A program made the translations under genes and the position numbers. A DNA stretch of 64,000 nucleotides, taken from positions 288,001-352,000 of the forward strand of contig CAWDSK010000005.1 in the NCBI GenBank assembly GCA_963804995.1, in the 5' to 3' direction. Of the stretch, positions 10,041 to 31,894 are shown one piece after another. A model generated the notes under the pieces. That model saw only the letters and a list, made by a program, of their open reading frames with translations, was not told the origin of the DNA and did not search any database. The DNA comes from an uncultured Acidobacteriota bacterium. GTDB taxonomy: Bacteria; Acidobacteriota; Terriglobia; UBA7540. Every line of letters begins with the position of its first letter. The stretch's first letter is position 1.

Positions 10041-10143
10041 CGTGGTGGATGCCTCGTGCCTTGTAACTCACCCTGAGAAGCCGATAACAGAATTGTTCCG
10101 AGATAATGCAAACCCAATCGTCCAAACAAAAGGAGAAACCCAC

Positions 10144-13633: not shown

Positions 13634-14374
13634 GTGCACACGCTGCCGCTGCCCAAAGTGACCAGGCAACAAATACAATTTCTTCTCCGGGTCGCACCCC
13701 CGGCCCTCCAAAGCGAGCGCGAGTACGAAATCCCGGCCTGCATCACCCTGGCGCAAGCGATTCTGGAAAGCGCCACACCCAGGTTCGGCTGGGGAAGTTC
13801 CCGCCTGTTCCGCCTGGCGAATAATCCGTTCGGGATCAAGTACAGCCACAGGCCGGGGGTCGAAAGTCAAAAGTTGAAAGTTGAAAGTGCGCTTGAAAGT
13901 TCGAATTTGAAAGTTCAAAGCCAGGGCGCGGTTGTCAGCGCGGTTTCAACTTTAAACTCTCAACCTTTAACCTCTTCCCTCAACTCTCAACTTTCAACTT
14001 CCGCCCCCGAAGACTACGGCCACTTCGATGTGGCGACCTGGGAATTCATCAACGGGCAAAAGAAAGAAGTTTTTGCACAGTTTCAGCGCTTCCCCGACCT
14101 GACCGAGGCCTTCAAGGCGCACGCGCGGTTGCTTCTTTCGCCGCACTACCGGCCGGCGTACGAGGTGCGTCACGACTGGAAACAGTTTGCGGAGCGGCTG
14201 GGTCCTAAAAAGTCGCAGCAGGACACCGACCATTGTGGGTATTCCACAAACCCCAGCTACTCCGCCTTGCTTATTAATTTGGTTAATACCTATCGTCTGG
14301 ACGACCCCCGCGCACAAGAGTGGCTGTCAACCGGAAAGGATCCCGGTCCGGTGCTGGAGCAACTGTTGGCGTGA
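13634..14374 (+). CDS. Endolysin, glucosaminidase (GH73/FlgJ-like)
   Basis: ITLAQAILES..GWG.S.L...ANNPFGIK, T.E, F..F and GYSTNPSY motifs; contains an in-frame hairpin insert. Confidence 0.85.
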   Translation: MHTLPLPKVTRQQIQFLLRVAPPALQSEREYEIPACITLAQAILESATPRFGWGSSRLFRLANNPFGIKYSHRPGVESQKLKVESALESSNLKVQSQGAVVSAVSTLNSQPLTSSLNSQLSTSAPEDYGHFDVATWEFINGQKKEVFAQFQRFPDLTEAFKAHARLLLSPHYRPAYEVRHDWKQFAERLGPKKSQQDTDHCGYSTNPSYSALLINLVNTYRLDDPRAQEWLSTGKDPGPVLEQLLA

Positions 14375-14537
14375 TTAGACATAGCTATCAGCTATCAGCT
14401 TTCAGCTCTCAGCTAGGGCGTTGGCCCGAAGGGTGAACCCTGATACCTGAAAGGCGAAGGTTGAACGTTGATAGGTGAAAGCTGATGACTGAAAGCTGAT
14501 AGCTGAAAGCTGACGACTGAAAGCTGATGGAGGTCTT

Positions 14538-15089
14538 ATGAAGTTTCGCAATCTTATTCTTGCAACGGTTTTAGGTATGGTCACTCTCAGCCTGGCCTGC
14601 ACGCCTCCTTCCTGGGCCGTGGAGGCGGAGAACATCGCCAAAGTGGCGCTCCCCATCGTCGAAGGCATTGCCACGATTGTGGGCGCGGGGCCGGCCGTTA
14701 CCCAGGTTGCAAATGACATCAATCTGCTTATCACCTTGTTTGATAGATACCAGTCCACACCAAGCGCCGGCGCGCTGCAGCAGATTCAGGCGGGCCTTGC
14801 CACCGCGAACGCGGATATCCAGCAGATTCTAGCCGCGACGCACATCCAGAATACGGCTACGCAGAACAAAGTGACCGCGATTCTCCAGCTTGTCTTGAGC
14901 GAGTTTTCGAGTATTGCAAGTCTGGTGCCAGAGGCAGTAGGCAGTGGGCAAAAGGCAGTAGGCAGCAAGCCGGCCCCGGAACTTCCGTTCACCGCCTCGC
15001 AGTTCAAGGCCCAGTACAACCGCATCGTGAAGGCGAAGACCGGCGATGCGGAATGCGACAGAGTGTTTGCAGGCAAGGAACTGAAGTAA
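14538..15089 (+). CDS. Lipoprotein in the lysis module
   Basis: GGAGG RBS; signal peptide with lipobox SLAC. Confidence 0.65.
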   Translation: MKFRNLILATVLGMVTLSLACTPPSWAVEAENIAKVALPIVEGIATIVGAGPAVTQVANDINLLITLFDRYQSTPSAGALQQIQAGLATANADIQQILAATHIQNTATQNKVTAILQLVLSEFSSIASLVPEAVGSGQKAVGSKPAPELPFTASQFKAQYNRIVKAKTGDAECDRVFAGKELK

Positions 15090-15194
15090 TCGGCTCATCT
15101 TTTCATCGGCTCATCGGGCCATCTAAGAACAAAGCCCGTGAGCGGCCGATGAACCGATGAACCGATGGGTCGATGAACCGATAAGAGACTAACT

Positions 15195-16379
15195 ATGGCA
15201 GCCAACCACTCCACAATGCGACTCGGCAAGCGTCCCCGGCGCGACGACCCGCGCACGCTGAAACTGGCAAGGTATCTCCTGCCGGGCGCCTGGGCGGCGG
15301 CGATCGCTCCTCCCTCGAGCTGTGATTACACCCGCGGCATCAAGGGTTGGGGAATGATGCTCAACGACAAGCTCGGCTGCTGCACGATTGCCGCCGTCGG
15401 CCATGCCGTACAGATTTGGACCGCCAATGCCAGCAAGGAAATTACCGTTCCGGACTCTACCATCCTTAGTTATTACGAACGATGGGATGGCTACAATCCC
15501 CAGGATGCATCGACCGACCGGGGTGGCGTTGAGCTCGACGTGCTGAACGATTGGCGGCAGCAGGGATTTAGTGGGCATTCTCTTGATGCCTATGTTTCTG
15601 TCGGGTTAGGGAACAGGGAACAGGGAACAGGAAACAAAGGCCAGGGAACAGGGAATAGGGAACAGGGAACAGGAAACAAAGGCCAGGGAATAGGGAATAG
15701 GGAACAGGGAACAGGAAACAAAGGCCAGGGAACAGGGAATAGGGAACAGGGAACAGGAAACAAAGGCCAGGGAATAGGGAATAGGGAACAGGGAACAGGA
15801 AACAAAGGCCAGGGAACAGGGAATAGGGAACAGGGAACAGGAAACAAAGGCCAGGGAATAGGGAACAAAGGCCAGGGAATAGGGAACAGGGAACAGGGAA
15901 TAGAGGCGGAAGTACAGAACCCAACCCCCAGCACCCAGGGCCCCGTCCCTAGCCCCCAGCCCCCAACCGCCAACTCCGATATTGCTTTGGCCATCTGGCT
16001 TTTTGGCGGGGCTTACATCGGCGTGCAATTGCCCATCACGGCCCAGAACCAGAATGTCTGGGACGTGCCGCAAAATCCCGGACCGAATGACGAGCCCGGC
16101 TCGTGGGGCGGGCACGCGATCTATCTGGTGGGGTATGACACACGGGATACGGGTAGTGTTTTTCCTAACCCCCAGTCCCCAGCCCCCAGCACCCAGTCCC
16201 CAACTTTCACTTGCATCACCTGGGGCAAATTGAAACGCCTGACCTGGGCCTGGCTGGAGAAGTATTGCGACGAAGCCTATGCACTGGTTTCGAAGGATTG
16301 GATCAAGGCGAACGGAATCGCGCCTTCGGGATTCGATTTCGCCACGCTGGAAGCGGACCTGAAGTTAGTCACTGCGTAG
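15195..16379 (+). CDS. Papain-like (C1-type) cysteine peptidase with repeat inserts
   Basis: NDKLGCCTIAA, GGHAIYLVGYD and ITWG motifs. Confidence 0.65.
   Translation: MAANHSTMRLGKRPRRDDPRTLKLARYLLPGAWAAAIAPPSSCDYTRGIKGWGMMLNDKLGCCTIAAVGHAVQIWTANASKEITVPDSTILSYYERWDGYNPQDASTDRGGVELDVLNDWRQQGFSGHSLDAYVSVGLGNREQGTGNKGQGTGNREQGTGNKGQGIGNREQGTGNKGQGTGNREQGTGNKGQGIGNREQGTGNKGQGTGNREQGTGNKGQGIGNKGQGIGNREQGIEAEVQNPTPSTQGPVPSPQPPTANSDIALAIWLFGGAYIGVQLPITAQNQNVWDVPQNPGPNDEPGSWGGHAIYLVGYDTRDTGSVFPNPQSPAPSTQSPTFTCITWGKLKRLTWAWLEKYCDEAYALVSKDWIKANGIAPSGFDFATLEADLKLVTA
15609..15902 (+). repeat. Coding tandem repeat, 42-bp unit built from GGGAA(C/T)A-type heptamers
   Basis: About 6-7 copies encoding GNREQGTGNKGQG(T/I). 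Confidence 0.95.
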
Positions 16380-16486
16380 GAGCTTCACCACCAAGGCACA
16401 AAGGCACCAAGAAATGCCTTGGGTTTCTAACTCATTCAGCTTGGTGTCTTGGTGCCTTGGTGGTTTGACTTTTTCTCGGAGAATTT

Positions 16487-16834
16487 ATGGACCCGCAATC
16501 ATTGCAAGTACAAGCCCTGATCACTTTTCTAACTCCGCTCTTGATTCAGCTCGCCAAGCGCAGCCGGTCACGGGCGCTGGCTTGGATCGATCAGAGCAAA
16601 CCGAATATTTGTATTTTGACCAGCGCTGTGACGGCCCTTTTGACCTGTACGGAGATTGAGGTCATTCACGCTCCTCACAGCCTGACGATTACCTGGCCGG
16701 ACGAGGCCACGCTGGTGCGGGGGATTCTGACTTTCCTGGTGGCGGCGGCAGTGCAATTTGGCGGCCAGCATGTCTTTTACGATTCCTTCTGGCGGCATGT
16801 GGTGCCGACGGAGAAGTTAGAAGCGAGGAGCTAG
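16487..16834 (+). CDS. Holin-like small membrane protein
   Basis: 115 aa with about 3 hydrophobic segments, located in the lysis block. Confidence 0.5.
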   Translation: MDPQSLQVQALITFLTPLLIQLAKRSRSRALAWIDQSKPNICILTSAVTALLTCTEIEVIHAPHSLTITWPDEATLVRGILTFLVAAAVQFGGQHVFYDSFWRHVVPTEKLEARS

Positions 16835-17056
16835 GAGTTAGAAACGAGAAGTGAGAAGTCAGGAGTGTGTAGTGAGGAGTTAGAAGTTAGAAGTGAGGAG
16901 TTAGGAGTGAGGAGTCAGGAGTGAGTAGTTTTGAGCGAGGAGTGAGGAGTGAGAAGTAAGGAGTAAGCAGTGAGAAGCGAGAGGCGAGAATGAAAGTGTC
17001 TTCTAACTCCTAGCTCCTAACTTCTAACTCCTAGCTTCTCGCTCCTAACTCCTAGC
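16813..17056. repeat. Heptamer-repeat hairpin (GGAGTGA/GAAGTTA versus CTCCTAG/CTTCTAA)
   Basis: Long degenerate 7-mer array followed by a reverse-complement array. Confidence 0.9.
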
Positions 17057-17070
17057 CTTTGGAAACTTCC

Positions 17071-17424
17071 ATGATTTCTGCAGCGGAAATTCAAGCGATG
17101 TTGATCGGCGCCGGGGGGTTTGTGGGCACCAGCGTGGCGGGAATAGGAGCCTTTCGATTTTTCTCCCGCGCCTCGCATGGGGTCCTCACGATTCCCTCCA
17201 GCCTGGAGAGGGGCGCCGAGGCGCTGGAGCGATCGGTAAAAGTCGCCGAGACGCACAACGCCCTCAGCACGACGGTCATGGAGCTGAAGGGCATGCTGAC
17301 CGCGACGCGCGAGGATATCCAGAAAGTGATGCTAGAACGCCAGGAGATCGGCCGTGAACTTCGAATCATGTCACGAAAGATTGAGGGTTTTTCCTGCTAT
17401 GCCGAAGACCAAGAGCAAAGTTGA
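17071..17424 (+). CDS. Membrane-anchored coiled-coil phage protein
   Basis: N-terminal TM segment plus coiled coil; position just before the Mu gp26/27/28-like genes. Confidence 0.55.
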   Translation: MISAAEIQAMLIGAGGFVGTSVAGIGAFRFFSRASHGVLTIPSSLERGAEALERSVKVAETHNALSTTVMELKGMLTATREDIQKVMLERQEIGRELRIMSRKIEGFSCYAEDQEQS

Positions 17425-17704
17425 ATTCGAACTCAACCGCACTGAGATTCTCCGCTACCTGAATGAATGCGGCTTTCAGCCCGTGACCCCGCGGAGCATC
17501 TTGATTTACTTGGACGATAGCCTCCGCCCCGTTTCCGACCAGGCCGTGGAGTTTCAATTGCGCTACATGCGCGATCGGAACTGGGTGGAGCTGGGCAGTG
17601 AGAAACGTATCGGCCGCCCGGAAGTCATCCGTTGGGCGCGCATCACCGCCGACGGCGTCGATGAATATGACCGGCGGGCCGCGGCGCTGGGAGAGGTCAG
17701 ATGA
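17399..17704 (+). CDS. Winged-helix protein, Mu gp26-like
   Basis: R.EILRYL...V..QLRYM....WVE...ARITADGVD pattern; synteny. Confidence 0.55.
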   Translation: MPKTKSKVEFELNRTEILRYLNECGFQPVTPRSILIYLDDSLRPVSDQAVEFQLRYMRDRNWVELGSEKRIGRPEVIRWARITADGVDEYDRRAAALGEVR

Positions 17705-17823
17705 TCGGCTCATCGGTTCATCTTTCCATCGGCTCATCGAATCATTAGCTCTTAGATGACCCGATGACCCGATGGCCCGATGACCCGATAGTCCGATGAC
17801 CCGATTCGGAAAGATTTCAAATT

Positions 17824-18108
17824 ATGACCAGACCGACCCATATCGAAGCACTTGACCGGCGCCTTCCGGGTCTTGCGGACGCGGTGAAAGCCTGGTTCAA
17901 CCAGGGTGTACCCGTGCGCCAGGTCGTGGAGCTGATCCGCCGGCAGTATCACATCGCGGTGCCTCGGTCGACGCTCGGCAACTTTCGGGCCCGGCGCTGG
18001 GCGCGCGATCGCGAGCTTAGGCTGGAGAAGGAACCCGAGGCCAGGGCCACTGCCGATGGGGCCGATGAGTCTATCCGGCAGGCCGCGGCGCCCGAAGCGA
18101 TTCGATGA
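17824..18108 (+). CDS. DUF3486 / Mu gp27 (small terminase)-like HTH, short paralog 1
   Basis: IEALDRRLPGL...VPRSTLGNFR...W. Confidence 0.55.
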   Translation: MTRPTHIEALDRRLPGLADAVKAWFNQGVPVRQVVELIRRQYHIAVPRSTLGNFRARRWARDRELRLEKEPEARATADGADESIRQAAAPEAIR

Positions 18109-18185
18109 GTAAGTGATTTAGCCATGGCGTGATGGAGCAATTGTAAAGCCCCAAATCACTCATTGCCAGGAACCGATTAAGGGAG

Positions 18186-18458
18186 TTGAAACTCGTGGGA
18201 CGAAAAGGGGTCACCAAGCTGCATTCGCTTGACGCTCGACACCCCGGGTTGTGCCAGAAGGTGGATGCGATGTTTGCGGCTTTCGCGAGCATCGATGCTG
18301 TCGCGGCAATGATCCGGGCCGAATTTGGCGAGCCCATCGGCCACGCCACCGTTTGGGAGTACAAGAGGCAAATCTGGAGCGTGCGGCGCAGGAGGGATCA
18401 GGCGGCCAGAGCGGCCCTGACCGCCTATGAGGAATTGGCAAGCGAGGGGAGAAACTAA
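18186..18458 (+). CDS. DUF3486-like HTH, short paralog 2
   Basis: KLHSLDARHPGL...IGHATVWEYK...W; GGGAG RBS. Confidence 0.55.
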   Translation: MKLVGRKGVTKLHSLDARHPGLCQKVDAMFAAFASIDAVAAMIRAEFGEPIGHATVWEYKRQIWSVRRRRDQAARAALTAYEELASEGRN

Positions 18459-19049
18459 GTGCCCAAAGATCAGGCATGCAAACTGCAAATCCTGAGCGTC
18501 AAACACCCGGGCCTCCTGCAGGTTGTGGACACGATGTTCGAGAAGTTTGCGACTGTCGCGCAAGTCCAGCGGATGATCGAGCAAAAGTATCACGAAGACG
18601 TCGGCACGACCGCCGTCAGGAGCTACAAGCAAAAACATTGGCAGGTTCACAAGGATCAGATCTGCGAGCTGAAAACGGCCATGAAAGCCGTCTCGGAGCT
18701 GGTCGGCGAAGACGGCCTAACTGCCGGTGTGAACGCCTTGCTCTGGGAAGGCCTGCAGGAGATGACGGTGCCGCAATTGATGGCCTTTAAGAAAGTCTTG
18801 AACGACGGCGAGAAGGTCAGGCTGATGAAAAAGCACTTCGCCCTCTACGCTCAGGAGCACCGCCAGAAGATGCGGGAACGCACCAGCATGCAAGCGGGCA
18901 AGGGGAACATCGAGGTCGTCGAGGATTTCGACGCGGCCCGGCGAATGGTGGAACAAGCAAAGGAAATTTTCGGGATCGGGACAACGGTCATCGTCCCGCC
19001 CGTGCCGAAGCTGGAGGCGGTCGCCGCCGCCGGCGACGTGAACGCGTAA
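18459..19049 (+). CDS. DUF3486 / Mu gp27-like small terminase, full length
   Basis: KLQILSVKHPGL...VGTTAVRSYK...W, then a coiled coil ending in KEIFGI; lies upstream of TerL. Confidence 0.6.
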   Translation: MPKDQACKLQILSVKHPGLLQVVDTMFEKFATVAQVQRMIEQKYHEDVGTTAVRSYKQKHWQVHKDQICELKTAMKAVSELVGEDGLTAGVNALLWEGLQEMTVPQLMAFKKVLNDGEKVRLMKKHFALYAQEHRQKMRERTSMQAGKGNIEVVEDFDAARRMVEQAKEIFGIGTTVIVPPVPKLEAVAAAGDVNA

Positions 19050-19127
19050 GAAATTCGGAATGATGAATACGAAATGATAAAGGCGAATCCTGAGAAATGC
19101 GCACTTCATCACGACCGTCAGGTCGGT

Positions 19128-19480
19128 TCCCCGCAGGGGATAAATTTAATAGCCGGGGGCAACGCCCCCGGTGGGCGGAAATCCTCATCTTTGCTGACCC
19201 TGAAGGGGTCACATTGGAATCGAGGGGCAGGGAACGAACTCGACACGGATTATCGACCCCTTCAGGGTCGGCTCGTGGCTCGTTGCGTTTCCGGGGGCGT
19301 TGCCCCCGGCTATTATCTTGCGCCCTTGCAGGGCTCAGGAACGAGCACGGACCTCTTTTCTAGGTCCGCGGCCCTTCGGCAGGGTCGATAAGAAAAGCCG
19401 CAGACCCTGAAAGACAAGCGCTACGCCGATGGAGCGTCCCGATTTATCGGGACGGCGGCGGTCGCAGACCGCCGCTACAG
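19128..19480. repeat. Stack of REP/MITE-like palindromic elements
   Basis: About 205-bp nested inverted repeat (taatagccgggggcaacgcccccgg...gaccctgaaggggtc / gaccccttcagggtc...ccgggggcgttgcccccggctatta), then cggacct..aggtccg (also at 5097) and gcggcggtcgcagaccgccgctac. Confidence 0.75.
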
Positions 19481-19504
19481 ACGAAAGAGCAAGGCAAAAG
19501 GTAA

Positions 19505-21100
19505 ATGGCAAAACGGAAAGGTTCCAATTCGCCGATCACCCGATCTCCGATTTCGGGAGTCCGATGGACTCCCTCGGAGTCCGCAGATCGGACACCCGAT
19601 CTCCGATTTCAGGAGTCCGATGGGCTCCCTCGGAGTCCGCAGATCGGACACCCGATCACCGGATCGCCCGACGCGGTGCCTGAGACCCCAATGGACCGGC
19701 TTCGGACTCTGGCGAAGAAATCGATCCCCGTTCTCCCTTACCAGGACCGCTGGATTATGGACGACTCGCAATTGAAGATCGCGGTTTGGAGCCGGCAGAG
19801 CGGCAAGAGTTTTGCCGCCGCGCTGCGGGCCGTGCTCAAGTGCCTGGGCTCCCGCACCCAATACATCATTCTCTCCAAGGGCGAGCGCCAGTCGCGGCTG
19901 TTTATGGAAAAGGTCAAAGACTTCTGCGTGTTCTTCAAGAGACTGAAGGCATTGCCGGCCTTTGCTGAGTTGGACTCGGACGAGAAAACCATGGAGGTCT
20001 ATTTCCCGCACAACCGCTCGCGCATCATCGGCCTGCCGGCCAATCCGGACACGGCGCGCGGCTACAGCGGAAACATCGTGCTCGACGAGTTTGCCTTCCA
20101 CGGCGACGCCCGCAAAATCTATGCTGCCTGCTTTCCTATTATCACGCGCGGGTATTCGATTGAAGTTATTTCCACGCCTAATGGCACGGCGGGGAAGTTT
20201 TATGAGATTGCGAAGGCGGCCGGATTGACGGGCGGGCAGTGGGCAGGTGGGCAGGTAGGCAGTTGAGATATTTCCCATCTGCCCATCTCCCCATCTGCCC
20301 ATCTGCCTAATCTTTGGTCCGGCCACCGAGTGGACATCCACGAAGCGGTCGCGCAGGGCCTGCCCGCCAACATCAATCTGCTCCGTTCCGGCTGCGACGA
20401 CGAAGAGACCTGGCTCCAGGAATACTGCTGCCAATTCCTTTCCGACGCCGCGAACTACATTCCGATTGAGCTGATTCTGACCTGCGTGCATGAAGCGGCC
20501 ACGACGGACCTGAGCGCGGTGGACCTGGCGGGGCTCGAGGGCAAGGAACTTTACCTGGGGATCGATATCGGGCGGAAGCGCGACCTCACCATCGCCTGGC
20601 TCTTTGAAAGGCGCGACGGGGTGCTGTGGTCGCGGGTCCTCCTGGCTCTGAAGGACATGACCTTTGACGCGCAGGAAAAACTCCTCTTCAGCCTTATGGA
20701 TTTGGGAGTGCGGCGCGCGGGGATTGACGCTTCCGGCCTCGGCATGATGCTGGCGGAACACGCCGTCGAAAAGTACGGCGCAGTGGTGGAGCCCACCACT
20801 TTCACCATGCAATTGAAGGAACGCCTGGCGCCGATGGTGAAACAGGCTTTCGAGGATCGCACCGTGCGGATTCCGGATTCGCGGGAGGTGCGCGCCGACA
20901 TCAACTCCGTCAAGCGCTTCGTAACGCCCTCCGGAAACGTGCGCTTTGATGCTGAGCATACCGACCGGGGACACGCCGACCGCTTCTGGGCGCTGGCGCA
21001 GGTCATCAGCACCGCCACCCAGCCGGTGGCGCACTTTGAAGAAGCCGCCTCCCTGGTGGGCGCGCCGGTGACGGCGGGAATAATGGATGCGATCTTGTAG
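19505..21100 (+). CDS. Terminase large subunit, Mu gp28-like; interrupted by an in-frame TGA at 20264
   Basis: LPYQ..W, Walker A SRQSGKS, Walker B VLDEFAF, STPNG, LGIDIGRKRDLT and GHADRFWA. ORFs 19505-20266 and 20330-21100 are in the same frame. Confidence 0.9.
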
Positions 21101-21306
21101 CGCCGCCGTCCCGGCGGCACAGGCCACAGGCCGGCAAGATGCCGGCGTTACGGTGGGCGCTCCGGTGACGGCGGGGCTGATGGAGCAGATTTTGTAATCG
21201 GGCCATTCACGGATCGGGTCATCGGATCATCGGGCCATCTGACAACAACGATGAACCGATCAATCGAGGGTTTGATGAACCGATGGACCGATGGAAAGAT
21301 GAACCG

Positions 21307-23080
21307 ATGATTAAGGCTCACAGCTCGGGAAACGGTCACCAGATGAAGCATTTAATCCGCGAGGGCAAATCGGTCTCCAAAGCGCTGCAGGCGCAAATCG
21401 ATACGGCCGTAGCGCTGGCGGATAAGGAACTGGGCATTGGGCAGATAGGCAGTAGGCAGATGGAAATGTTATCCACTGCCCAACTGCCTGCGGTTGGCCG
21501 TCAACCGCTTCTCACCCCCGCTCCGCTGACTACCACGGGCGGTTTGCCGGTCGCGTCCACGCGGGCCATTCCACCTCCGCCTCCGCCGGAGCCCATCTCC
21601 GTGGCGGATTACACGGAACGAATCCGGCAGGGCTGGGTTCCGGTCATGGGCGTCCCCGGCACTCCCATCACGGCGGGCTTCCTGCGCGAACTGGGTGAAT
21701 ACAATCCCAAGCTCGAAGGGCTGAACGGAATCTGGACTTATCAGGAAATGCGGCGCGGCGACGGCCAGGTGGCCGGTACCTTGCGCGCGTGCAAGATGCC
21801 GATTCTTTCCGCGCAGTGGCAGGTGAAGCCGCCCCCCGATCAGGAATTGCGCAAAGGCCAGACGGCGGAGAAGGCCAAAGAGGTCGCCCACTTTGTTCGC
21901 GAGAATTTCTTCGGCGGCCTGGAATGGCAGACCCACACGGGAAGCTGGGTGACGCAGAACTGGAAAGACGTGGTGCGTTTCGCGCTGCGCATGCAGGACT
22001 TTGGCGCGGCGTGTTACGAAGAAGTGATGGCCGTGGACGGCGATCAGATCCGCGTGCGCCGCTTGTGCGACCGCCAAGCGCTGACGTTTTACCGCTGGCA
22101 CACGGACCCGCATTCCGTCGATCCCACTCTGCCGCCTTTTATCTACGACGATGGCGAAACGCTTTACGGGCTCGAACAGTGGGGCTACCGCGGCAATCGC
22201 TTCGAGTATGTGATGCTGCCCACCGACAAGGCCTGCATCTTTACGCATGACCAGGAGGGGGCGAATTTCTGGGGTATCCCGCTGACCCGCGCCATGTACC
22301 CGCACTGGTACATGAAGAAACATCTGGAGCGGATCGACGCCATCGCCTGCGAACGTAACTCGCTGGGCGTGCCGATGATCCTGCTGCCGCCTAATCCCTC
22401 GAAGCAAGACGTTCTCGACCGCCCAGAATTGGGTGACCCAATTGGCCGCGCATGAAAAGACCGGGCTCGCACTGCCCAACGGCGCGGAGTTCAAGTTGGT
22501 CGGCATCGAGGGACGGATTCGCGAGATATTACCTTCGCTCGAATATCACAAACAGCAAATCGCCACTTCCTGCCTGGCCATGTTCATGGAACTCGGCCAG
22601 ACACGGACGGGCTCACGCTCCCTGGGCGAATCGCAAACCGACTTCTTCCTGCTGGCCACGCAGAATACTGCGGACCATATTGCGCACCAGATCCGCAACT
22701 CAACGATTCGCCGATTGACCCAGTGGAATTTCGGACCGGACGCGCCCGTGCCCTACCTCATTCCCGCCAACGTGCAGGCCCGGTCGATCGAGACCATGTC
22801 GGGCATCATTGCCCAGCTTGCCCAGGCCGGCGCGTGGATCTCCGATCGCTCCAGCGTGAATCAGGTGCGGCACGAGCTCGGGTTTGCGGACTTCACGGAT
22901 GATGACGTTGTCTCCATCCGCGGCGAGACCATTGCCACAGCCGGGGGTGAGATCAGCGGCAAGGGCGGAGAGGCGATCAGCATCGGCTCCCCGAATGGCC
23001 GTGCCTTTGAGCCAGCGAAGAAACAGAACGAGGGTGAATACGGCGAGGGGGCGGGCGGCGCGGACGATGACGAAGCGTAA
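21307..23080 (+). CDS. Portal protein, Mu gp29/DUF935-like; +1 frameshift near 22415
   Basis: YQEM...DGQVAG.L..CK.PIL, NFWGIPLTRAMY..WYMK, ERNSLGVP; continues in the next frame with LALPNG, GSRSLGE. Start is uncertain. Confidence 0.85.
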
Positions 23081-23245: not shown

Positions 23246-23764
23246 ATGACAACCTTACGGAATTCCTTGGTTCTTTCTTTCTCGATCGCGGTCCTGATCG
23301 TGCTGATGGCGCTTCCGACCTGGCGCCCGCCGCAGGTGAGGGCTGATTCCTACAGCTCGCATCGCTTCCCGGCGTTCGGGTACATTCTGGACAATCCCAT
23401 CCTGACAATTGCCGGGGCGACCACGACGACCAGCCCCACATCTACCACCGGCTCGACGACGGCGCACCTGACCTGGGTCTTCGGGACGGTATCCGGCACC
23501 TACACGACTTGCACGGTGCAGGCAAGAACCAGCTTCGACGGTGTCACTTGGCTGAATCTCGGGAGCGCGGCTTCGGTAACCGTCACCAGCAATGCCGTCA
23601 ACGCCTGGGATATCTATCAACAGGCGCCCGTAACTACCGGCGTGACCACCACTACGGTCAGTAACTCCGCGGCGGCGGGATTCGGCCAGTTGAGCGAGTA
23701 CACCTTCGCCTGCTCCGCCTACGGAACCAGCGCGCCGGTCACGATCACGGCGATCTATAAGTGA
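23246..23764 (+). CDS. Thr/Ser-rich beta protein with signal peptide (possible head decoration)
   Basis: GGAGAGG RBS; hydrophobic N-terminus ending VRA-D; TVQARTSFDGVTW. Confidence 0.65.
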   Translation: MTTLRNSLVLSFSIAVLIVLMALPTWRPPQVRADSYSSHRFPAFGYILDNPILTIAGATTTTSPTSTTGSTTAHLTWVFGTVSGTYTTCTVQARTSFDGVTWLNLGSAASVTVTSNAVNAWDIYQQAPVTTGVTTTTVSNSAAAGFGQLSEYTFACSAYGTSAPVTITAIYK

Positions 23765-23845
23765 AGCCGACAGTTGACAGCGCACTGTTCATCGTCGGCT
23801 GTTAGCTGAGAGCGGTAAGCCCAATAAAAACGATAAGGAGCACAC

Positions 23846-24856
23846 ATGACAAAGTTCAAGGCAAGTCTGCTGATAACACTTCTGTTTACGGTCTTGGGTT
23901 CATTGCCTTCCAGCCTTTTTGGCCAAGGATCGGCTGGGCCAGTCTTGGGCGGCACCAACTACTCAAGCCTCGAGGGGAGTTTTGGCATCCCTAGCGTTTC
24001 CTGGGCTGCGACAGGCCTGACGCTCAACTACACAGCCGGCACCGTCTATCAGAAAGGCGCCGCAAACTCCATTAACTTAGGAAGCCTAACCTTAACGACG
24101 AACATGACCTCCTGTTCTCTCGCGGGGATCCTGGCGGGCTCCTGCAACCTGGTGTACTGGTCAGGATCGGGCAGCGCGCTCGCCTCCACCACGTCCTATC
24201 CGACCGCCGCCGCGAGCGGCAGCACGATTCTCTATTTCTGTACGGCGAACGTCAGCGGCAACATCACCGGCTGCGTCGTCGCAACGGAAGACGTGCTGGG
24301 TGCGATCCCGGCCACTTACAACGATGGCCTGCTCATGGTGCCAGTCACCAATTGCAGCTTTACCCCGGTCACCACAGCATTTACGGGTACACCGGGGCTG
24401 GTGCGATTGGTGGCAAATCAGACCACCTGGAGCGGCACAACCAACACCACGGCCGGAACGATTTACATGAGCTGCGATTTGGGCCTCGAAGGTCGCGTCA
24501 CTCCCGGTTTGGGATTTGTGGTCAAGGATATCGCCGTTCAGTACGGCGTCCAAGGCGTGGCCTTGTCTTCCATTACCACGCCCACGCTCAAGACCAATAC
24601 CTTCCCGGCCTACGGCGGCTCGGCCGGCGACACCCTGGCCGCGGTCGGTGGCACGATTACCAGCAACCCCGGCGTGCTGCAACTGGCCACAACGACTTCG
24701 GGCAACTTCTATAACGCAGACTTTATTTGCGGGACCCCATTCACCCTGACGGATCAAACCAAGGTGAATTTCGAAGTGGCCCTCAACACCCCGGGCACGA
24801 CCGGCCTGACTTTGCAGGTCAGCGGACTGCTAGTGCATGGGAACTGGATTCAGTAG
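23846..24856 (+). CDS. Beta-rich protein with signal peptide (possible head fibre or decoration)
   Basis: AAGGAG RBS; MTKFKASLLITLLFTVLG...LFG-Q. Confidence 0.65.
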   Translation: MTKFKASLLITLLFTVLGSLPSSLFGQGSAGPVLGGTNYSSLEGSFGIPSVSWAATGLTLNYTAGTVYQKGAANSINLGSLTLTTNMTSCSLAGILAGSCNLVYWSGSGSALASTTSYPTAAASGSTILYFCTANVSGNITGCVVATEDVLGAIPATYNDGLLMVPVTNCSFTPVTTAFTGTPGLVRLVANQTTWSGTTNTTAGTIYMSCDLGLEGRVTPGLGFVVKDIAVQYGVQGVALSSITTPTLKTNTFPAYGGSAGDTLAAVGGTITSNPGVLQLATTTSGNFYNADFICGTPFTLTDQTKVNFEVALNTPGTTGLTLQVSGLLVHGNWIQ

Positions 24857-24947
24857 ATCGGTAGGGCGTGGATGGCAGGTCGCATACAGGGGGAAACCCC
24901 AGCTACTACCTGCCACGCACCACACAACCTTTTTGGAGAGCGCTACG

Positions 24948-26357
24948 ATGTCAGACGACACAAAGAATTTTCACTTCATCTCCCAGCTTAGTGCGATGCC
25001 GGCCGCGGGCCTGGCGCGCCTTCCGATTCTCGTCACGGGCAGTTGGGTAAAAAACGGGCGGGAGGTTTCCTTCACACTGGATGAGCTGCGCGCTGCAGTC
25101 TCGAACTTCCGGAAACTCGCAAACCACGACATCAACGTTGACTATGACCACGCCTGCGAGGATCTGGAACGAGCTGCTGGCGAGCCTACGCCCAGCGCCG
25201 GGCGCGTCGTGGCACTTCTTGAGCCAGCGCCCTTCGAATCGGGTGATCAGGTGATCGCGAGATCAGGTGAAGAGGAAAGCCGATCACCGGATCACCAGAT
25301 CACCGGATCATCCGATCGTTGGATTCTATATGGCCGCTACGAGCCCACGGACCGCGCCCGCGAACTTATTAAGAACCGGGAATATCGGTATGTTTCAGCG
25401 GCCTTTGCGAAAGACTACCCGGACCGGAAGACCGGTGAGTCCCAGGGCCTGACGCTGACCAGTGTGGCCCTCACCAATCAACCTTTTCTCGACGAACTGC
25501 CGGAAATTTGGCTGGCAACTACAAGTCCGGGGTCCGAAGTTCGGAGTCCGAAATCCCAACCCCGAATTGCAGATCCCGAATCCCTGAACACAGACCGCCG
25601 TCAGGCGGGGAACGGAGGAAGAATTGAAATGGCGAAGCTAACCCTCAGGTGCTCCGCGGACGGCAAACACGAAGCCTACGACGGAGACAACAAGCTCGGT
25701 GAAATCGAACACGACCACCTCTGCCAGTATGCTGCACAGCATTTGGGCATGGCGGCGGGTTCCGAAAAGGACGAAACGGGCGCGCAACTGGCCGCGAATT
25801 TTGCCAGGGAAATCGGCGCAGAAGGCAGATCCCGCGAAGAGATCCGCGGCCTGCTGACGCTCGCGCTCCATCCACTCAAAGCCGAGGTGACACTGCTGTG
25901 CGAAACCATCGGCGCGGACGGCAAGCTCAACAATAGCCGGCTGGACGCGCTCGACGACGGCGGCAAAATCTCCCGCACGGCCTGGCGCCGCGCTAAGGAC
26001 GCCGAGCAGCGCGTGCAGAATGCCTTCCAGCGTGGCCAGATTACTCCGGCCATGATGGCGACGGGCGCGCCGCTGCGTCTGGCGCTTTCCGACGGTGCGG
26101 CCTTCAAATCGCTTATCGAAGACCGTCCGGCCATGGTCAAGCTGAACTCGGTAGTGGGCATCGGCGGCACAGGCACAGAAACTGGTGAGTCGCCGCGTCA
26201 CCTCTTCTCACGCATGGTCGAGGAGAAAAAGCGGCAGCTCATGCAGACGGACAACAGGCTCAGCGAGCTCGAGGCGCACCGCCAGGCGAACGCCCTGGTG
26301 GCCAAGGAAAACCCCGACCTGCTCAAGAACTATCGTGCCGACGCCAAGTCGGCGTGA
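24948..26357 (+). CDS. Prohead protease/scaffold, Mu gpI-like
   Basis: INVDYDH, PSAG, T.RA.ELIKNREYRYVS and SVALTNQPFL motifs. Confidence 0.88.
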   Translation: MSDDTKNFHFISQLSAMPAAGLARLPILVTGSWVKNGREVSFTLDELRAAVSNFRKLANHDINVDYDHACEDLERAAGEPTPSAGRVVALLEPAPFESGDQVIARSGEEESRSPDHQITGSSDRWILYGRYEPTDRARELIKNREYRYVSAAFAKDYPDRKTGESQGLTLTSVALTNQPFLDELPEIWLATTSPGSEVRSPKSQPRIADPESLNTDRRQAGNGGRIEMAKLTLRCSADGKHEAYDGDNKLGEIEHDHLCQYAAQHLGMAAGSEKDETGAQLAANFAREIGAEGRSREEIRGLLTLALHPLKAEVTLLCETIGADGKLNNSRLDALDDGGKISRTAWRRAKDAEQRVQNAFQRGQITPAMMATGAPLRLALSDGAAFKSLIEDRPAMVKLNSVVGIGGTGTETGESPRHLFSRMVEEKKRQLMQTDNRLSELEAHRQANALVAKENPDLLKNYRADAKSA

Positions 26358-26531
26358 CGACGGCAGCGCTCAGCAAGGACTAGCCGTCAGCGGCCAGCAT
26401 TGAACTTTGCCTTGCCGCTGATAGCAAATGAAAGAAGTGCTCAACTGGAACCAGCGATCAGCAGTCAGCTAGAGATTTAGCTGAACACTGAAAGCTGAGA
26501 GCTTACAGCTTCATTTTGACAAGGAGGAAAC

Positions 26532-27035
26532 ATGCTTGGAAACCAAGGATTGACAGCGGCCAAGTTCGACACCAATATTCGCGCCTTGCGCGGTACGGTC
26601 ATGGGCTTGCCGGTCACGAATCTCTCAACGGAATCCGATTTCTACGCCGGCCTGCCTTCCGGCTTCAATGTCGTGCCAACGGGTGTTCTGGCTCAGGATG
26701 TGGTTGAGCCCGGCTACCCCCTGACCTCGGAATTGTGGCTCGATCCGAACACGGGCAATCCCATTAACGGCTCCGTGCCTCCGGCGCCTTTCATTTCGCA
26801 AGGCCGCGCCTGGGGATTGATTGTCTTCGCCCCGGAAGCGGAAGTGATCGCGGCGGATACCACCATCCAGGCCGAGGACGACGTGGTCATCGCCGACGCC
26901 TACGGGCGAGTCACGTCGATTCGCAACGTCACAACTGGGAATACTGCCTACGTGGTGGGCAAGGCGAAGTACCCGCCCACCGCGCAAAACCAGAAGATCC
27001 GCATTCAGGTGAATTTGCGGCAAGTGAAGGTCTAA
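26532..27035 (+). CDS. Capsid cement/decoration protein
   Basis: AAGGAGG RBS; GVLAQD...I.A.D.V..ADA.GRV...VVGKA; lies between protease and capsid. Confidence 0.6.
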   Translation: MLGNQGLTAAKFDTNIRALRGTVMGLPVTNLSTESDFYAGLPSGFNVVPTGVLAQDVVEPGYPLTSELWLDPNTGNPINGSVPPAPFISQGRAWGLIVFAPEAEVIAADTTIQAEDDVVIADAYGRVTSIRNVTTGNTAYVVGKAKYPPTAQNQKIRIQVNLRQVKV

Positions 27036-27243
27036 GAACGCGGGACTGGGGAAACGGGACACGGGAAGAACAAGTCCCGCGCTCCGCGGCCCCTGTTCCG
27101 CGCCCCGGCGTTTCAGCGCCCGCTGTTGAATCCCGCGGCTACGGGACAACGACAGTGCGCGCAATTAGGGATCAACGATTCGTGTAAGGGATTCGGGCCT
27201 TCCCGTGTCCCGAGTCCCGAGTCCCGTATCCCGAGGAAAGAAC

Positions 27244-28185
27244 ATGGAAGTTTCCTTAGCGCATCTTGATCAATTTCTGACCAATTATTCAATCGTGTAC
27301 CGCAACAACGATTTTGTGGCGGGCCGGCTCTTCCCCGACTTCCCGGTCTCGAAACAAAACGATCGCTACCCGATGTTCGGATTCGAACGTTTCAAGGCTT
27401 ACAACACCGAACGCGCCCCGGGCAGCGAGGCCAACGAGATGCCCGGGTGGCGCATGTCGAACGATGAGTATTACTGCGACGGCAAGGCCCAGAAGCAGCT
27501 TATCCCCGACGAACTGCGCGCCAAGTGGGATTTCTCAACGGGACCCGAAGTTTTCACGACCGAGACCCTGGCCGACATCATCGACAAACAACGTGAAATC
27601 CAGGTCTTCAACCTGGTTATGAATTCGGCATCGATCCCCAGCACCACGCTGGCGGGCACGGGCCAGTGGAGTGATTTTCAGAACTCGGATCCCGTGGCTG
27701 CCATTACGGCACAACGCTCCACGATTCTGCTCTCCTGCACCAAGGAGCCGAACACCCTTCTGGTCGGCTACCCCGTCTGGTTGCAGCTCATCCAGCACCC
27801 CATCATTCTTGACCGCTTCAAGAACCACGCCCTGCCGCTCGGCTATCCCACCGATCAGCAGTTGGCCGGGCTCTTCAATGTTGACAACTTTGTGGTTGCC
27901 AAGACGCTGTATGACACTGCCCAACAGGGTATGGCTCACAGCCTCAACTATATCTGGGGCAAGAACGCCGTCCTGGCCTACGTACCGCCGGGACAGGGCC
28001 AGTTGATGATCACCCCGGGCACCACTTTCCGCTGGCTTTATGGCGTTCCTCAGAACGGCGGCATGCTGGTGAAGCGCTATCGGGTGGAGGAGCGCAGCGG
28101 GGACATGATCGAATACCAGACGTACTACTGCGTAAAACTTGTCGTGCCGGGCGCGATGTACGTGTTTAAGAGCGCTGTAGCATAG
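27244..28185 (+). CDS. Major capsid protein
   Basis: H.D..LTNYS..Y.N..FVA..LFP..PV, W....SDPV, PNTLLVG..VW..L..HP, IWGKNAVL. Confidence 0.85.
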   Translation: MEVSLAHLDQFLTNYSIVYRNNDFVAGRLFPDFPVSKQNDRYPMFGFERFKAYNTERAPGSEANEMPGWRMSNDEYYCDGKAQKQLIPDELRAKWDFSTGPEVFTTETLADIIDKQREIQVFNLVMNSASIPSTTLAGTGQWSDFQNSDPVAAITAQRSTILLSCTKEPNTLLVGYPVWLQLIQHPIILDRFKNHALPLGYPTDQQLAGLFNVDNFVVAKTLYDTAQQGMAHSLNYIWGKNAVLAYVPPGQGQLMITPGTTFRWLYGVPQNGGMLVKRYRVEERSGDMIEYQTYYCVKLVVPGAMYVFKSAVA

Positions 28186-28272
28186 CGACGGAAGGAAGTG
28201 AGGAGTGAGAAGCTAGAAGTGAGAATGGTTTGCTTCTAGCTTCTACCTCCTAGCTCCTAGCTTCTGGAGGTT

Positions 28273-28620
28273 TTGATGCCCAAGTTTCAAGTTCTACAAC
28301 CTATTGAGAAAAACAATGTGATGTACGTTCCCATCGCCAGTAGTGGGCCAAAGCAATTGCCCAGCGCTTGTCATGGGAAGCTCATCCCGGTGGATGCCTC
28401 GGGTGAGATCGAGCTAACCGAAGATGAAGCCAGCATCCTCGTCTACGGCCAAGTTCCCCTGTTCCAGGGCAAGCCGGACCGGATCGGCGGCTCGGAGATC
28501 CGGGAGAAGAAGGCCAAAGAGGATGCGAAGGCGGCCGCCACCAAGGCGGCGGCCGAGAAAGCGGAGTACGAAGAGTTTCAAGCCTTCAAGGCAGCGAAGG
28601 CAGGAAAAAGCAAGAAATAG
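28273..28620 (+). CDS. Hypothetical head-associated protein
   Basis: GGAGG RBS; Lys/Ala-rich tail; follows the capsid gene. Confidence 0.6.
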   Translation: MMPKFQVLQPIEKNNVMYVPIASSGPKQLPSACHGKLIPVDASGEIELTEDEASILVYGQVPLFQGKPDRIGGSEIREKKAKEDAKAAATKAAAEKAEYEEFQAFKAAKAGKSKK

Positions 28621-28721
28621 GTTGAAAGTCGAGGGTTGAAAGTCGAAAGGTACTTGCCTTCAACTTTTAACATTCACCTTTTGACCTCCGACTAATTGGA
28701 AGTTCTTGAAAGGAGCCAAAA

Positions 28722-29012
28722 ATGGCAGCTTCAGCAACATTCACGACGCTCTTCACCTACCGCTTGGATCGCCGCCAGCTTGTGAGGCGGATCCGGGTGG
28801 ACATCACGGGGCTCGCCAACGGTGCGAACACAATCCCCCACGGAATTGTGGCCCCCAATAATCCGGCGGTGGGCCAAATGCCCAAAGAGGAGATTGTTCT
28901 CCTGACGTCCAACGTGGCCGTACACCGCACCCAGCCGGCCGATGCTACGAATGTGTATTACACAGTCGATTCGGGTGCGGGTACGACGATCTCAGTATAT
29001 GTGACCGTATAG
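28722..29012 (+). CDS. Small beta-rich virion protein
   Basis: AAGGAG RBS; TIPHG...P...DATNVY motif. Confidence 0.6.
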   Translation: MAASATFTTLFTYRLDRRQLVRRIRVDITGLANGANTIPHGIVAPNNPAVGQMPKEEIVLLTSNVAVHRTQPADATNVYYTVDSGAGTTISVYVTV

Positions 29013-29106
29013 GGTGAGCGGCCCTCGCCCATTTGTGATCGCGTGATTGGTGATTTGCGATTTTCAATCACCAATCACCGATCGCCAAATCGCTAATTGA
29101 GGTCTT

Positions 29107-29640
29107 ATGTCCTACACAACTGTAACCAATGTCGCGGCAATGTTCCCCACCTTCACCCGCAACGGGCCGAAGGGACCCTCGGACACGCTCATCCAGACCT
29201 TTATAGATGACGTGGCGGCGGAAATCGATGCGGTCCTACAGCGCCGCTTCCAGGAAGCTTACGCCAGCCTGGGATTCTATGTCTGGCAGGCGGCCTTCAG
29301 CACCGACCAATTGAACCTGTTGGAGAAAATGAACCGTTACGGTGCCTGTGCCCAGCTCGCGGAGGTATTCGAAACTGCCGGGATTGCGTCCGCGTTGCGC
29401 GTCGCGAAGGGTTTTGAGGATAATTTCCAGGAATCGTACAACAAGCTCAACGCTCGCGACCAAGCGGGCAAGCCGCTCCCGCAGGGTGGGGACTTCGATT
29501 ATCTGTTTGATCCGCAGGCCAAAGTCGAAACGCCACGCCCGCAATTGGGTGGCATTGCCGGAGGCGATCAACAACCCAGTGAGACCGATCACGAAGGAAC
29601 GAATGTGAATTTTCGGAAGTGGGACCGGAAAGAATTTTAA
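29107..29640 (+). CDS. Head-tail adaptor, Mu gp36-like
   Basis: MSYTTVTNV...I..FIDDVAAEIDAVL..RF. Confidence 0.7.
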   Translation: MSYTTVTNVAAMFPTFTRNGPKGPSDTLIQTFIDDVAAEIDAVLQRRFQEAYASLGFYVWQAAFSTDQLNLLEKMNRYGACAQLAEVFETAGIASALRVAKGFEDNFQESYNKLNARDQAGKPLPQGGDFDYLFDPQAKVETPRPQLGGIAGGDQQPSETDHEGTNVNFRKWDRKEF

Positions 29641-29728
29641 AGGGTAAAGGATAAAGGGTAAAGGATGAACCTGGCGTCGTTCGCTTTAGCCTTTAACCTT
29701 TACACTTTAACCTTTTGGATAACAAATC

Positions 29729-30301
29729 ATGTCCTGGCAACAAGCTTACCAAGCCCAATTCGCAAAACCGCTGGTCAACCAGCTTATCGCCATCATCCAG
29801 CGTGATCAGGCTGCGGCGCTCGCGATCATCAACACCGCGCGCGCCACTGACGGCAATCAGCCGCTTTACCCTATCGCGGAATTTCACAAGGGTCCCGGTG
29901 CGCGGATGGGCTGGCCCTGGCTCTTCGTGGAGGTCGGCCCCACGAACTTCAATCGCAACAGTGACAAGGCTACCCGGCATCATGAGGTGCGCATCAATTT
30001 GGCGCTCGACACCGGGCAATACGACCAGGAGATGGCCCAGGAAGATGCGCAGGACTACGCGCGCATGCTCGACATGATTATCGCGAGCGCCGGGCCGTGG
30101 CCGTCTCTCGCCGACTGGACGACGGCGTTGCCGATTCAGCATGAGACCGTACAAAGCGGAACCACGGTGCCGAATGCTGGCGGGTCAGTTAGCGATGTCT
30201 TTATTGAATCGCATGTGCCGGCGAAGATCAACGTCCCCGGTGTGGATGCCCCCGTGATGCGCATCACGCTGACGGTACTTTTCGAATTGGAAGAAGTGTA
30301 G
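29729..30301 (+). CDS. Tail terminator-like protein
   Basis: Position before the tail tube gene; WP.LFVE motif and terminal beta strand. Confidence 0.5.
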   Translation: MSWQQAYQAQFAKPLVNQLIAIIQRDQAAALAIINTARATDGNQPLYPIAEFHKGPGARMGWPWLFVEVGPTNFNRNSDKATRHHEVRINLALDTGQYDQEMAQEDAQDYARMLDMIIASAGPWPSLADWTTALPIQHETVQSGTTVPNAGGSVSDVFIESHVPAKINVPGVDAPVMRITLTVLFELEEV

Positions 30302-30397
30302 AGAAAGAAGCGGTTAGCAAGGACTGGCAGCCAGCGCTCGGCTTAAGGTTTTAGCTGATTGCTGAAAGCTGACAGCAGTCCTTGAAAGGAGCTGAAA

Positions 30398-31186
30398 ATG
30401 CCTCTCGGAACTCCCAGCCCGACCCTGATTCATCAAGGCCCTGGCTGGCTCTATTTGAATGTCTGTGCGCCGGCCACGGGCAAGCGGCACATCATTGTCT
30501 CAGACGGGACGCCCACGCAGCCGGTGTGGTCGGCGTCGCAAGGGGTCACCCCCGGGCAGATGATTGTGGATACCAACGGCAACCTTCAGGAGTGCACAAC
30601 AGGCGGCACAACGGGAAGCCTCGCGCCCGGCACCTGGTGCAACGCAGTTGGCGCCACCACCTCCGATGGTGCGAACGTGATCTGGACTTGCATGGCCGTG
30701 GGCCCGGCTTATCTTTTTGCCGGCGCACTGGAGGGCGCTACCGATCTCGATATCGGAGCTAAGGTGGAAGAAACGACCGCCGACCAGGAAACCCTTCCCA
30801 TCGATGCGGTGATGACCGGCGAAGTGGACTCAGTCGCCGTGACGCTGAAGGAATCCGATTGCGCCAAGTTGCAGCTTTTGGTTCCCCACGGCACGTACGC
30901 CTCAGGCTCTGACAGTGCCTTGCCCACGGGCGCACAGACTTATGAAGAAATCGCCTTTGGCGGCCTCAAGCCTGTGCCCAAGTTCGGAGTGCTGCTCATC
31001 TCGAAGCGCAAGGACCAGAACTCCAAGTTCGTCATCTCCCAAATCTACCGCGCCTATCAAAAGGAGACGGTGAAGCTTCCCTTCCAACGCGGTAAGGAGA
31101 CGACTTTCAAGGTTACCTTCCAAGCCATCGCGGACCAGAACCGTCCAGTTGGCGATCGGGGCGGGAAGGTTTATCGGCAGACGTAG
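30398..31186 (+). CDS. Major tail tube protein (non-contractile) with an inserted small domain
   Basis: IHQGPGWLY, GALEGAT, V.VTLKE, VTFQAIAD; AAGGAG RBS. Confidence 0.72.
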   Translation: MPLGTPSPTLIHQGPGWLYLNVCAPATGKRHIIVSDGTPTQPVWSASQGVTPGQMIVDTNGNLQECTTGGTTGSLAPGTWCNAVGATTSDGANVIWTCMAVGPAYLFAGALEGATDLDIGAKVEETTADQETLPIDAVMTGEVDSVAVTLKESDCAKLQLLVPHGTYASGSDSALPTGAQTYEEIAFGGLKPVPKFGVLLISKRKDQNSKFVISQIYRAYQKETVKLPFQRGKETTFKVTFQAIADQNRPVGDRGGKVYRQT

Positions 31187-31250
31187 TGCGCGGAACAACA
31201 GCATCCGTTGTCAATTCCTGATGACTGATAGCTGAGAACTGAGAACCACC

Positions 31251-31894
31251 ATGACTGAAAACGGAATTGCCAAACCCGAAGATTTCAAGCGGGCCGTCGC
31301 AACGCTCAATGTTCGAGCGGGTGATGCTGCCCGCCTCCGGACTCACCGTGCTGCTTTGCCGGCCACCCATTTTCGCGGCGCTGCGGCTGGGCCGCGAAGG
31401 CACGGAACTTCAAGCCAAGATTACGGAAGCCAAGCCGGAGGAGATTAGGCCCGAGGACATCACGGCGTTCTCCGACTGGGTCACGGCAACACTTTCTCGG
31501 CTTTTTGTGCAACCGCGCTTCTCCGGCGCACCCACGTCCGATGAGATCGGCCTGGGCGATATTCTCGTGGAGGATCTGAAATACATATTTCGTTGGCTGA
31601 GGGGCGAGGTCTTTAGTGCAGGGAATAGGGAATCGGGAATGGGGAGTGGGGAAGGTCCCAACTCCCAACTCCCGACTCCCGACTCCCACACTGAAGACCT
31701 CGCGCCCTTTCCTGGCGGACCGCGATCGGCTTCTGTATCTGGCGGAGGTAGCGAAACGCAGCCAGTGCCGGCCCAGCCAGTTGCTGGAACTCAAGGGGAT
31801 GCCGGCCTACTTGCTGGACTGCACCGCGGCTGAAATGGTTGTAGCGCGTGACCGAGGCGAGTTTGAGACGGAAGGGAATGTGGTGGAGTGGTGA
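31251..31894 (+). CDS. Tail assembly chaperone G/GT pair
   Basis: ATG 31251, apparent +1 indel near 31305, G frame to 31833; overlapping +1 frame (LLYLAEVAKRSQCRPSQLL) to 31894 via CCCTTTC at 31705. Confidence 0.65.

Follow-up and report, generated by a model that had tools for sequence, protein, structure and literature searches.

Host repeat hairpins at fixed in-frame sites of a Mu-type gene cluster in Terriglobia (Acidobacteriota)

Gene cluster and inserts in the window

The window analyzed here is a stretch of 64,000 nucleotides (nt) from an uncultured bacterium whose genome is a 7.55-Mb Terriglobia (Acidobacteriota) assembly (G000). It holds a single-copy cluster of Mu-type lysis, head, and tail genes, several of which contain hairpins built from short tandem units (Table 1). 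Ten such inserts had been listed in a first-pass annotation made from the letters without database searches; all ten were recovered at about the same positions, each inside an open reading frame (ORF). Tandem Repeats Finder (TRF) reported arrays at five of the ten sites, with a 42-nt period in the peptidase gene, and placed the 56-bp tandem duplication described for TerL at 19537-19661.

The labels given to the lysin, TerL, portal, and Mu-type protease were borne out by profile matches. Those of the "peptidase", "lipoprotein", and "chaperone" had no Pfam match and come from motif and position, and the putative peptidase matched nothing in Pfam or PDB even in its insert-free form. The TerL fold was confirmed by a fold search. 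A fold search with the protease returned nothing at E 0.001, with weak rows for herpes and T4 proteases. The putative tape measure (32047-32877) had no Pfam, PHROG, or NCBIfam match.

Table 1. Features of the window and of a second locus in the same genome (L, locus handle; C, contig handle)
Feature	Position	Strand	Remark
Mu-type lysis, head, tail cluster	13168-45120	+	single copy; no replication/integration gene seen inside
Glucosaminidase endolysin	13634-14374	+	PF01832 E 1.5e-20
Lysin slot, heptamer hairpin	13858-14001	+	orthologs 57-756 nt, in frame 13/14
Single repeat arm in putative lipoprotein	14931-14968	+	segment variable in 13 open orthologs
Slot 1 of putative Cys peptidase	15603-15970	+	42-nt-step expansion; absent in G014
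Slot 2 of putative peptidase	16137-16204	+	in frame 11/11
Intergenic heptamer hairpin, example	16811-17056	.	similar arms in many cluster spacers
Non-heptamer palindrome upstream of terL	19129-19335	.	Acido-Lenti-1 Rfam match
N-terminal extension of TerL, filled with repeats	19505-19670	+	56-bp duplication
TerL slot after ATPase core	20231-20310	+	in frame 30/31; 20 distinct units in 25
In-frame TGA inside TerL slot	20264-20266	+	this genome only
Second TerL slot	20500-20548	+	empty here, filled in most relatives
Hairpin in portal N-terminal extension	21431-21490	+	
Portal frameshift	22405-22425	+	one base more than relatives
Protease slot 1	25237-25318	+	predicted loop between two strands; in frame 33/34
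Protease slot 2	25524-25585	+	linker before likely internal scaffold start; in frame 20/22
Major capsid protein	27244-28185	+	no insert; 87-96% identical within genus
Chaperone frameshift	31275-31300	+	one base more than relatives
Tail-chaperone slot, 4+4 heptamers	31620-31688	+	81-93 nt in 19/19 rows; just before overlap with second chaperone frame
Putative tape measure, short (276 aa)	32047-32877	+	label by position only
Large hub-like protein, two small genes, variable fibre-like gene	33768-45120	+	labels from position
Helix-turn-helix (HTH) block in G000	L280:9700-14100 (G000:C5 about 131.7-136.1 kb)		

Slots across relatives and repeats of the host

The cluster was taken from 31 relatives, in all of which the matched genes keep their order. 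Nine insert sites, hereafter slots, were measured where both flanks mapped; the rows include the window's genome, two viral contigs, and three further loci, and the counts cover genomes with a flank match. The inserts at 19505-19670 and 21431-21490 lie in N-terminal extensions, outside this two-flank measurement. The reading frame was kept in 166 of 173 slot segments, so insert lengths were not random modulo 3, and five of the seven out-of-frame segments came from two genomes (G025 and G026), the first of which also has a broken rpoB. Over 7,661 slot codons, 3 stops occurred in the coding frame vs. 193 and 264 in the other two. The segments were not conserved in homologs: orthologs carried different repeat families at the same sites, with 20 distinct units in 25 TerL slots (45-234 nt long), 20 in 29 protease slots, and 11 in 16 chaperone slots. 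The continuity of frame on both sides of the inserts, as first reported, holds among orthologs but not throughout the window's copy, where TerL has a TGA and the portal and chaperone genes are frameshifted. Together with dN/dS values of 0.05-0.19 in ten cluster segments, the frame and stop pattern across orthologs supports the earlier proposal that selection has kept these proteins translated. With fair confidence, we consider the inserts to be real, selected and, to judge from the genomes, translated.

Of the ortholog segments, 124 of 164 folded with z < -2, as expected of hairpins and palindromic elements; the lipoprotein insert is one arm alone and barely folds. Coding inserts folded better antisense (sense strand more stable in 40/164), the reverse of the intergenic copies, for which the sense strand was more stable in 103/156 (window's genome only). 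In reverse orientation, a stop would fall in 89 of 161 slots and the hydrophobic share would be 33% vs. 17% in the actual one; hence the simplest reason for antisense-favored folding lies at the protein level. This strand preference bears on a rival explanation in which the RNA hairpin itself is selected at some slots, pacing the ribosome ahead of the frameshift overlap of the chaperone and ahead of the internal scaffold start, so that any folding family would suffice. The chaperone slot does fold in 19 of 19 rows of 81-93 nt, including three with a non-heptamer palindrome, and 19 of the 22 segments of protease slot 2 fold as well. However, the folding preference of coding inserts is opposite to that of intergenic copies, and lengths at the lysin and peptidase slots span a tenfold range, with empty slots also occurring. 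We regard a selected RNA hairpin as unlikely.

The inserts are host repeats, not phage repeats. TRF found 2,069 tandem arrays in the window's genome, on all contigs and mainly with periods of 7, 14, 8, and 21. A periodicity scan gave 1,239 elements, a density above chance (160 per Mb vs. 24 in a triplet shuffle). The first-pass annotation had located the repeats in lysis and virion genes; they are present there, but as members of a genome-wide set that is mostly intergenic (871/1,239). Only 11 elements of at least 35 nt lay well inside genes: the cluster, 32 kb long, had 3 of them, and the other 8 were spread over seven genes elsewhere. In-frame insertion is shared by the cluster genes with unrelated host genes matched specifically as PolB, MiaB-like, Mfd, BacA, and NrdJ; one further gene encodes a beta-propeller repeat protein, and another had no Pfam match. 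The host Mfd slot was in frame in 24/24 genomes (13 filled with varied families, 11 empty) and the BacA slot in 18/18 (about 5 filled). The length of RpoB was 1,560-1,562 aa in 16 genomes of the genus, with shorter frames in others. A heptamer insert occurs also in nifJ of Anabaena. Reverse transcriptases were considered as possible writers of the repeats; the window's genome had 49 matches to them (e.g., L169-L174), of which 38 were 528-aa frames and most were near-identical multi-copy ORFs.

In AlphaFold models, the TerL and protease slots were low-confidence coil between well-predicted elements, so that mapping the inserts on predicted structures placed both in loops. The predicted local distance difference test (pLDDT) was about 45-52 at the TerL slots in a model of 81.7, and below 50 at residues 94-116 of the protease. 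Phage relatives agreed: over 80 viral loci, their TerLs were short at the same three sites, with medians of 7 (22 measurable), 22 (80), and 15 (78) residues vs. 21-84, 24-82, and 12-50 residues in the cluster. Three or more arrays were present in 8 of these 80 loci. In 120 TerL homologs taken from databases, the length of the TerL slot was 4 to 64 residues, and solved glucosaminidases have a short connection at the site of the lysin slot. The models and comparisons suggest that the slots are likely translated as floppy, dispensable surface loops. At window 20231-20330, PHROG 7579 and 5909 matched the two halves of TerL separately, and terminases split near this site may exist in phages.

Such loops might also be adaptive, their rewriting hiding the terminase, portal, or protease from anti-phage sensors or from satellites that exploit the cluster. 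Defense proteins can bind terminases, and one defense-protein/terminase complex was among the fold matches of TerL. Slots were filled in most cluster orthologs vs. 13/24 for Mfd and about 5/18 for BacA, and the same genus has transposable elements whose capsid gene is 79-84% identical to that of the cluster. Housekeeping genes, however, behave alike, and the capsid, which is the most exposed protein, has no slot. An adaptive role appears quite improbable.

Likely replacement in place was followed at the chaperone site. In 16 of 19 rows, two arms of four heptamers each, the second inverted and in register with the first, enclosed a short loop, and 3 rows had a different, non-heptamer palindrome. 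Units were 0.78 alike within a genome vs. 0.55 when the same position was compared between genomes (15 genomes). As regards tract transfer at this slot, flank identity was 0.81 for same-family pairs vs. 0.79 for different-family pairs. In two sister genomes (G013 and G024), slot identity was 0.33-0.69 vs. 0.78-0.91 in the flanks. The concerted change of the arms calls for a homogenizing process. Since one added 7-nt unit would shift the frame, the unit number is frozen or moves by threes, as in the 42-nt period of the peptidase.

The same repeat families are linked to four-helix-bundle genes. Inverted arms of these families bracketed 13 of the 15 PF05635 genes in the window's genome vs. 2 of 120 control genes, and 5 of 6 PF13366 (GxxExxY-type) genes were bracketed likewise, their flanks being 8/9-mer palindromes. 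Across six genomes, the number of four-helix-bundle genes (21, 16, 15, 6, 5, and 3) roughly tracked array density (84, 74, 40, 12, 27, and 2 arrays). The slots share with these repeat-armed cassettes the inverted 7/8-mer arms of the same families. Y1 transposases were rejected as a partner of the heptamer families: 4 of 14 matches had inverted flanks, and none shared heptamer arms. A palindrome of the 8/9-mer type resembling the PF13366 flanks also lies at window 16387-16464. One family member (G052; L119-L120) had the cluster, yet its 40 kb contained just 2 arrays and its four-helix-bundle matches were limited to 3 weak ones; its protease match had an internal TGA.

Inheritance of the cluster

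Of 102 family genomes with a completeness of at least 85%, 86 had the capsid gene, and it was single-copy in 82 of these 86; among the capsid matches listed in family genomes, none had a stop. The protease profile matched 66 of 78 family genomes vs. 1 of 322 from other families in the class sample. For 16 genomes, cluster and rpoB distances were 0.157 and 0.137, with a Mantel rho of 0.85 that none of 2,000 permutations exceeded. Two clades were strongly supported in both trees, in which many nodes were weak. Flank scans covered a subset of the flank ORFs. Among the genomes scanned, the dtd gene preceded the cluster in 8 of 10 from other genera (8 genomes in four genera), and one shared host block followed it in 5 of 7 from this genus. 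In the scanned subset, no replication or integration genes were found except an integrase near the G020 copy and an IstB-like ATPase near G061, and neither MuA nor MuB was found in the window or flank scans. Genome searches with PF02914 and PF09299 were blank, yet their controls also gave no match. Two observations on individual genes may be added. Most relatives covered about 87% of the hub-like protein (window 33768-38939), which suggests that it carries an extra inserted domain here. The ORF at window 9862-10608 joins an oxidoreductase-like start to a RidA domain and is possibly a deletion scar beside the cluster.

The cluster has the head, packaging, tail, and lysis genes of tailed phages that are typical of gene transfer agents (GTAs), with tail labels partly positional, and it shows vertical inheritance under purifying selection; the lysin was not found in its other-genus copies. 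In G014 and G020, an HTH regulator and small membrane genes lay immediately before the lysin; in the window's genome, they were about 165 kb away, so the window's copy could not excise together with this block. Judging from sequence, the cluster is likely a domesticated, GTA-like element inherited vertically across the family.

The transposable elements mentioned above are multi-copy (L146, L147, L149-L153, L155-L161), with copies 99.8-99.9% identical within an assembly. They encode a Mu-like transposase, a MuB-like ATPase, regulators, a scaffold-like gene, and the 79-84% identical capsid, and some have pieces of chaperone or tape measure; they are almost repeat-free, and no terminase or portal was matched in them. 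They are candidate transposable capsid-forming satellites. If so, they would indirectly indicate that the cluster makes particles.

Ordinary prophages, repeatedly integrated, decaying, and gathering host repeats neutrally, would account for the three lesions in the window's copy, for the broken genes in G025 and G026, and for the integrase near the G020 copy. Against this stand the single copy in 82 of 86 carriers, the stop-free capsid matches listed, the low dN/dS, and the position beside dtd in eight genomes of four genera; moreover, the broken rpoB of G025 and the frameshifted selB and mfd of the window's genome (see below) point to assembly error. We consider decaying prophages very improbable.

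Interpretation and comparison with known systems

According to the reading that we hold with good, though not full, confidence, the inserts are host hairpins of 7/8-base units in fixed, frame-preserving slots of a single-copy Mu-type cluster. They would likely be translated as dispensable loops, were likely seeded from cassettes, and are likely rewritten in place; the cluster itself is likely domesticated and GTA-like. Hairpins would have entered the cluster from repeat-armed four-helix-bundle cassettes. To persist within a gene, a hairpin would need a length divisible by three and would have to lie in a loop in a stop-free, hydrophilic orientation. Selection on frame would then fix the unit count, and unit sequence could be renewed through slippage, through template switching from one arm to the other, and through conversion by copies elsewhere. 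That the cluster has more slots than host genes would follow from its long residence and its likely rare expression. The fixed slots with family turnover, the host repeat system, the family-wide vertical element, and the three lesions had all been missed in the first reading. A bolder version sees an undescribed Mu-derived GTA of one Terriglobia family, parasitized by transposable satellites that encode a capsid; the fixed slots in its packaging, head, and lysis proteins would be rewritten wholesale by four-helix-bundle-linked host machinery, as templated loop diversification of an undescribed kind; we give it a small but real chance.

Several observations weigh against the favored reading of host hairpins in translated slots. 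The translation of the inserts is predicted from genome sequences, and kin among the compared genomes are not independent. Any segment that cannot be aligned would be expected to have a low pLDDT. A search of 36 cluster regions yielded no cassette with cargo, although the control was found in the window's genome, and no event of seeding of a slot from a cassette was caught. Some closer pairs keep single slots 0.94-0.95 identical, so turnover is episodic. The trees are star-like with many weak nodes, and tract exchange between species may therefore explain some shared families. In G020, there is an integrase some 7 kb upstream, G061 has an IstB-like ATPase nearby, and G000, G014, and G020 do not share the same flanks. 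Finally, TerL, portal, and chaperone are broken in the window as assembled. The TerL slot has an in-frame TGA which other genomes lack, so this copy does not read through. The portal (~22415) and chaperone (~31285) genes are each one base longer than in relatives, and the chaperone insert is consequently not reached in frame from its natural start.

Most orthologs of the broken genes are intact. In the same assembly, selB (window 49960-51952) and mfd (G000:C3 about 1,263,520) are frameshifted, and in a survey of 53 host loci, 3 frameshifts were counted and 7 loci had stops, some of these cases being doubtful, which hints at assembly noise. Contigs of runs X1/X2 (one study, possibly the source sample) agreed exactly with the window over short pieces, among them 25272-25422 and 31389-31667, which take in parts of the protease and chaperone inserts; none of the listed pieces spans the TGA or either frameshift. 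The window's copy has either decayed recently or been mis-assembled; we lean toward error for the indels, and toward neither for the TGA.

Removal or skipping of the hairpins at the RNA level (intron-like, by ribosome bypass, or by excision as in rRNA intervening sequences), raised in the first-pass annotation, would neutralize the TerL TGA, which lies mid-hairpin, and the linked four-helix-bundle family bears the name of 23S rRNA intervening sequences, but if the inserts were taken out, stops would not be avoided just in the coding frame, insert lengths come in multiples of three where introns and bypassed segments are free of frame and stop constraint, no common boundary sequence is visible across families, and intervening sequences are excised without religation, which would destroy an mRNA; this explanation is not supported, and we consider it highly improbable.

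Under the favored reading, the hairpin at one protein site can be traced through dozens of species as it is exchanged for another, with arms that change in concert and a unit count that stays frozen, and thus the origin and homogenization of bacterial heptamer repeats become testable at defined sites. The slots also constitute a natural map of insertion-tolerant loops in a terminase, a protease, and a lysin. The family-wide head-tail cluster of soil and peat Acidobacteriota is a GTA candidate, and its head genes, being of Mu type, suggest that it arose separately from the Rhodobacter capsulatus GTA (RcGTA). In a partial literature search, with few subscription journals, neither the slots nor the cluster nor the link to four-helix-bundle genes turned up, and no GTAs in Acidobacteriota were listed. 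Cryptic phage contigs are reported for peat Acidobacteriaceae in the accessible part of one article (PMC12142844), a lead that was not matched to this cluster.

With known GTAs, as far as the available text of the reports describes them, the cluster shares a tailed-phage structural cluster, vertical inheritance, slow evolution, no visible replication module, a short putative tape measure, and, in the window's genome, a regulatory block at a second locus (PMC9953437, PMC10883770). It differs from RcGTA in its Mu-type portal, protease, and TerL, in its Acidobacteriota host, and in having lysis genes inside the cluster, and its packaging of host DNA is hypothetical. Mu-like transposable phages share the PF06074 portal, the PF10123 protease/scaffold, and a TerL named FluMu gp28-like by the sources; here, no transposase or MuB-like gene was seen at the locus, no sheath was matched, and the position is fixed. 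The cluster is not a complete Mu-like prophage.

The slots share arm families with armed four-helix-bundle cassettes of the window's genome. Unlike these and the ORF-bearing 23S rRNA intervening sequences, they are gene-less hairpins in coding sequence, retained and not cut out. Heptamer repeats are described in Xanthomonas, Nostoc, and Beggiatoaceae; in the consulted portions of these reports, they likewise have about four 7-base units per arm, often form inverted pairs, are mostly intergenic, and are limited in gene entry by the stop content of the reading orientation (PMC4692102, PMC4679880). As treated there, they comprise one or few units per genome, and those portions mention no in-frame slots, family switching, or four-helix-bundle link. 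The Rickettsia palindromic elements, to which the inserts had been likened, work alike: in the part of the source seen, they are palindromic, also intergenic, and in frame in unrelated genes with a predicted compatible fold (PMC10969869). The analogy fails for the conserved element itself. Rickettsia elements form families of about 150 bp, each encoding a conserved peptide (PMC10969869), whereas here each arm is a tandem array of 7/8-mers, the families number in the dozens, and the family at a given site differs between species.

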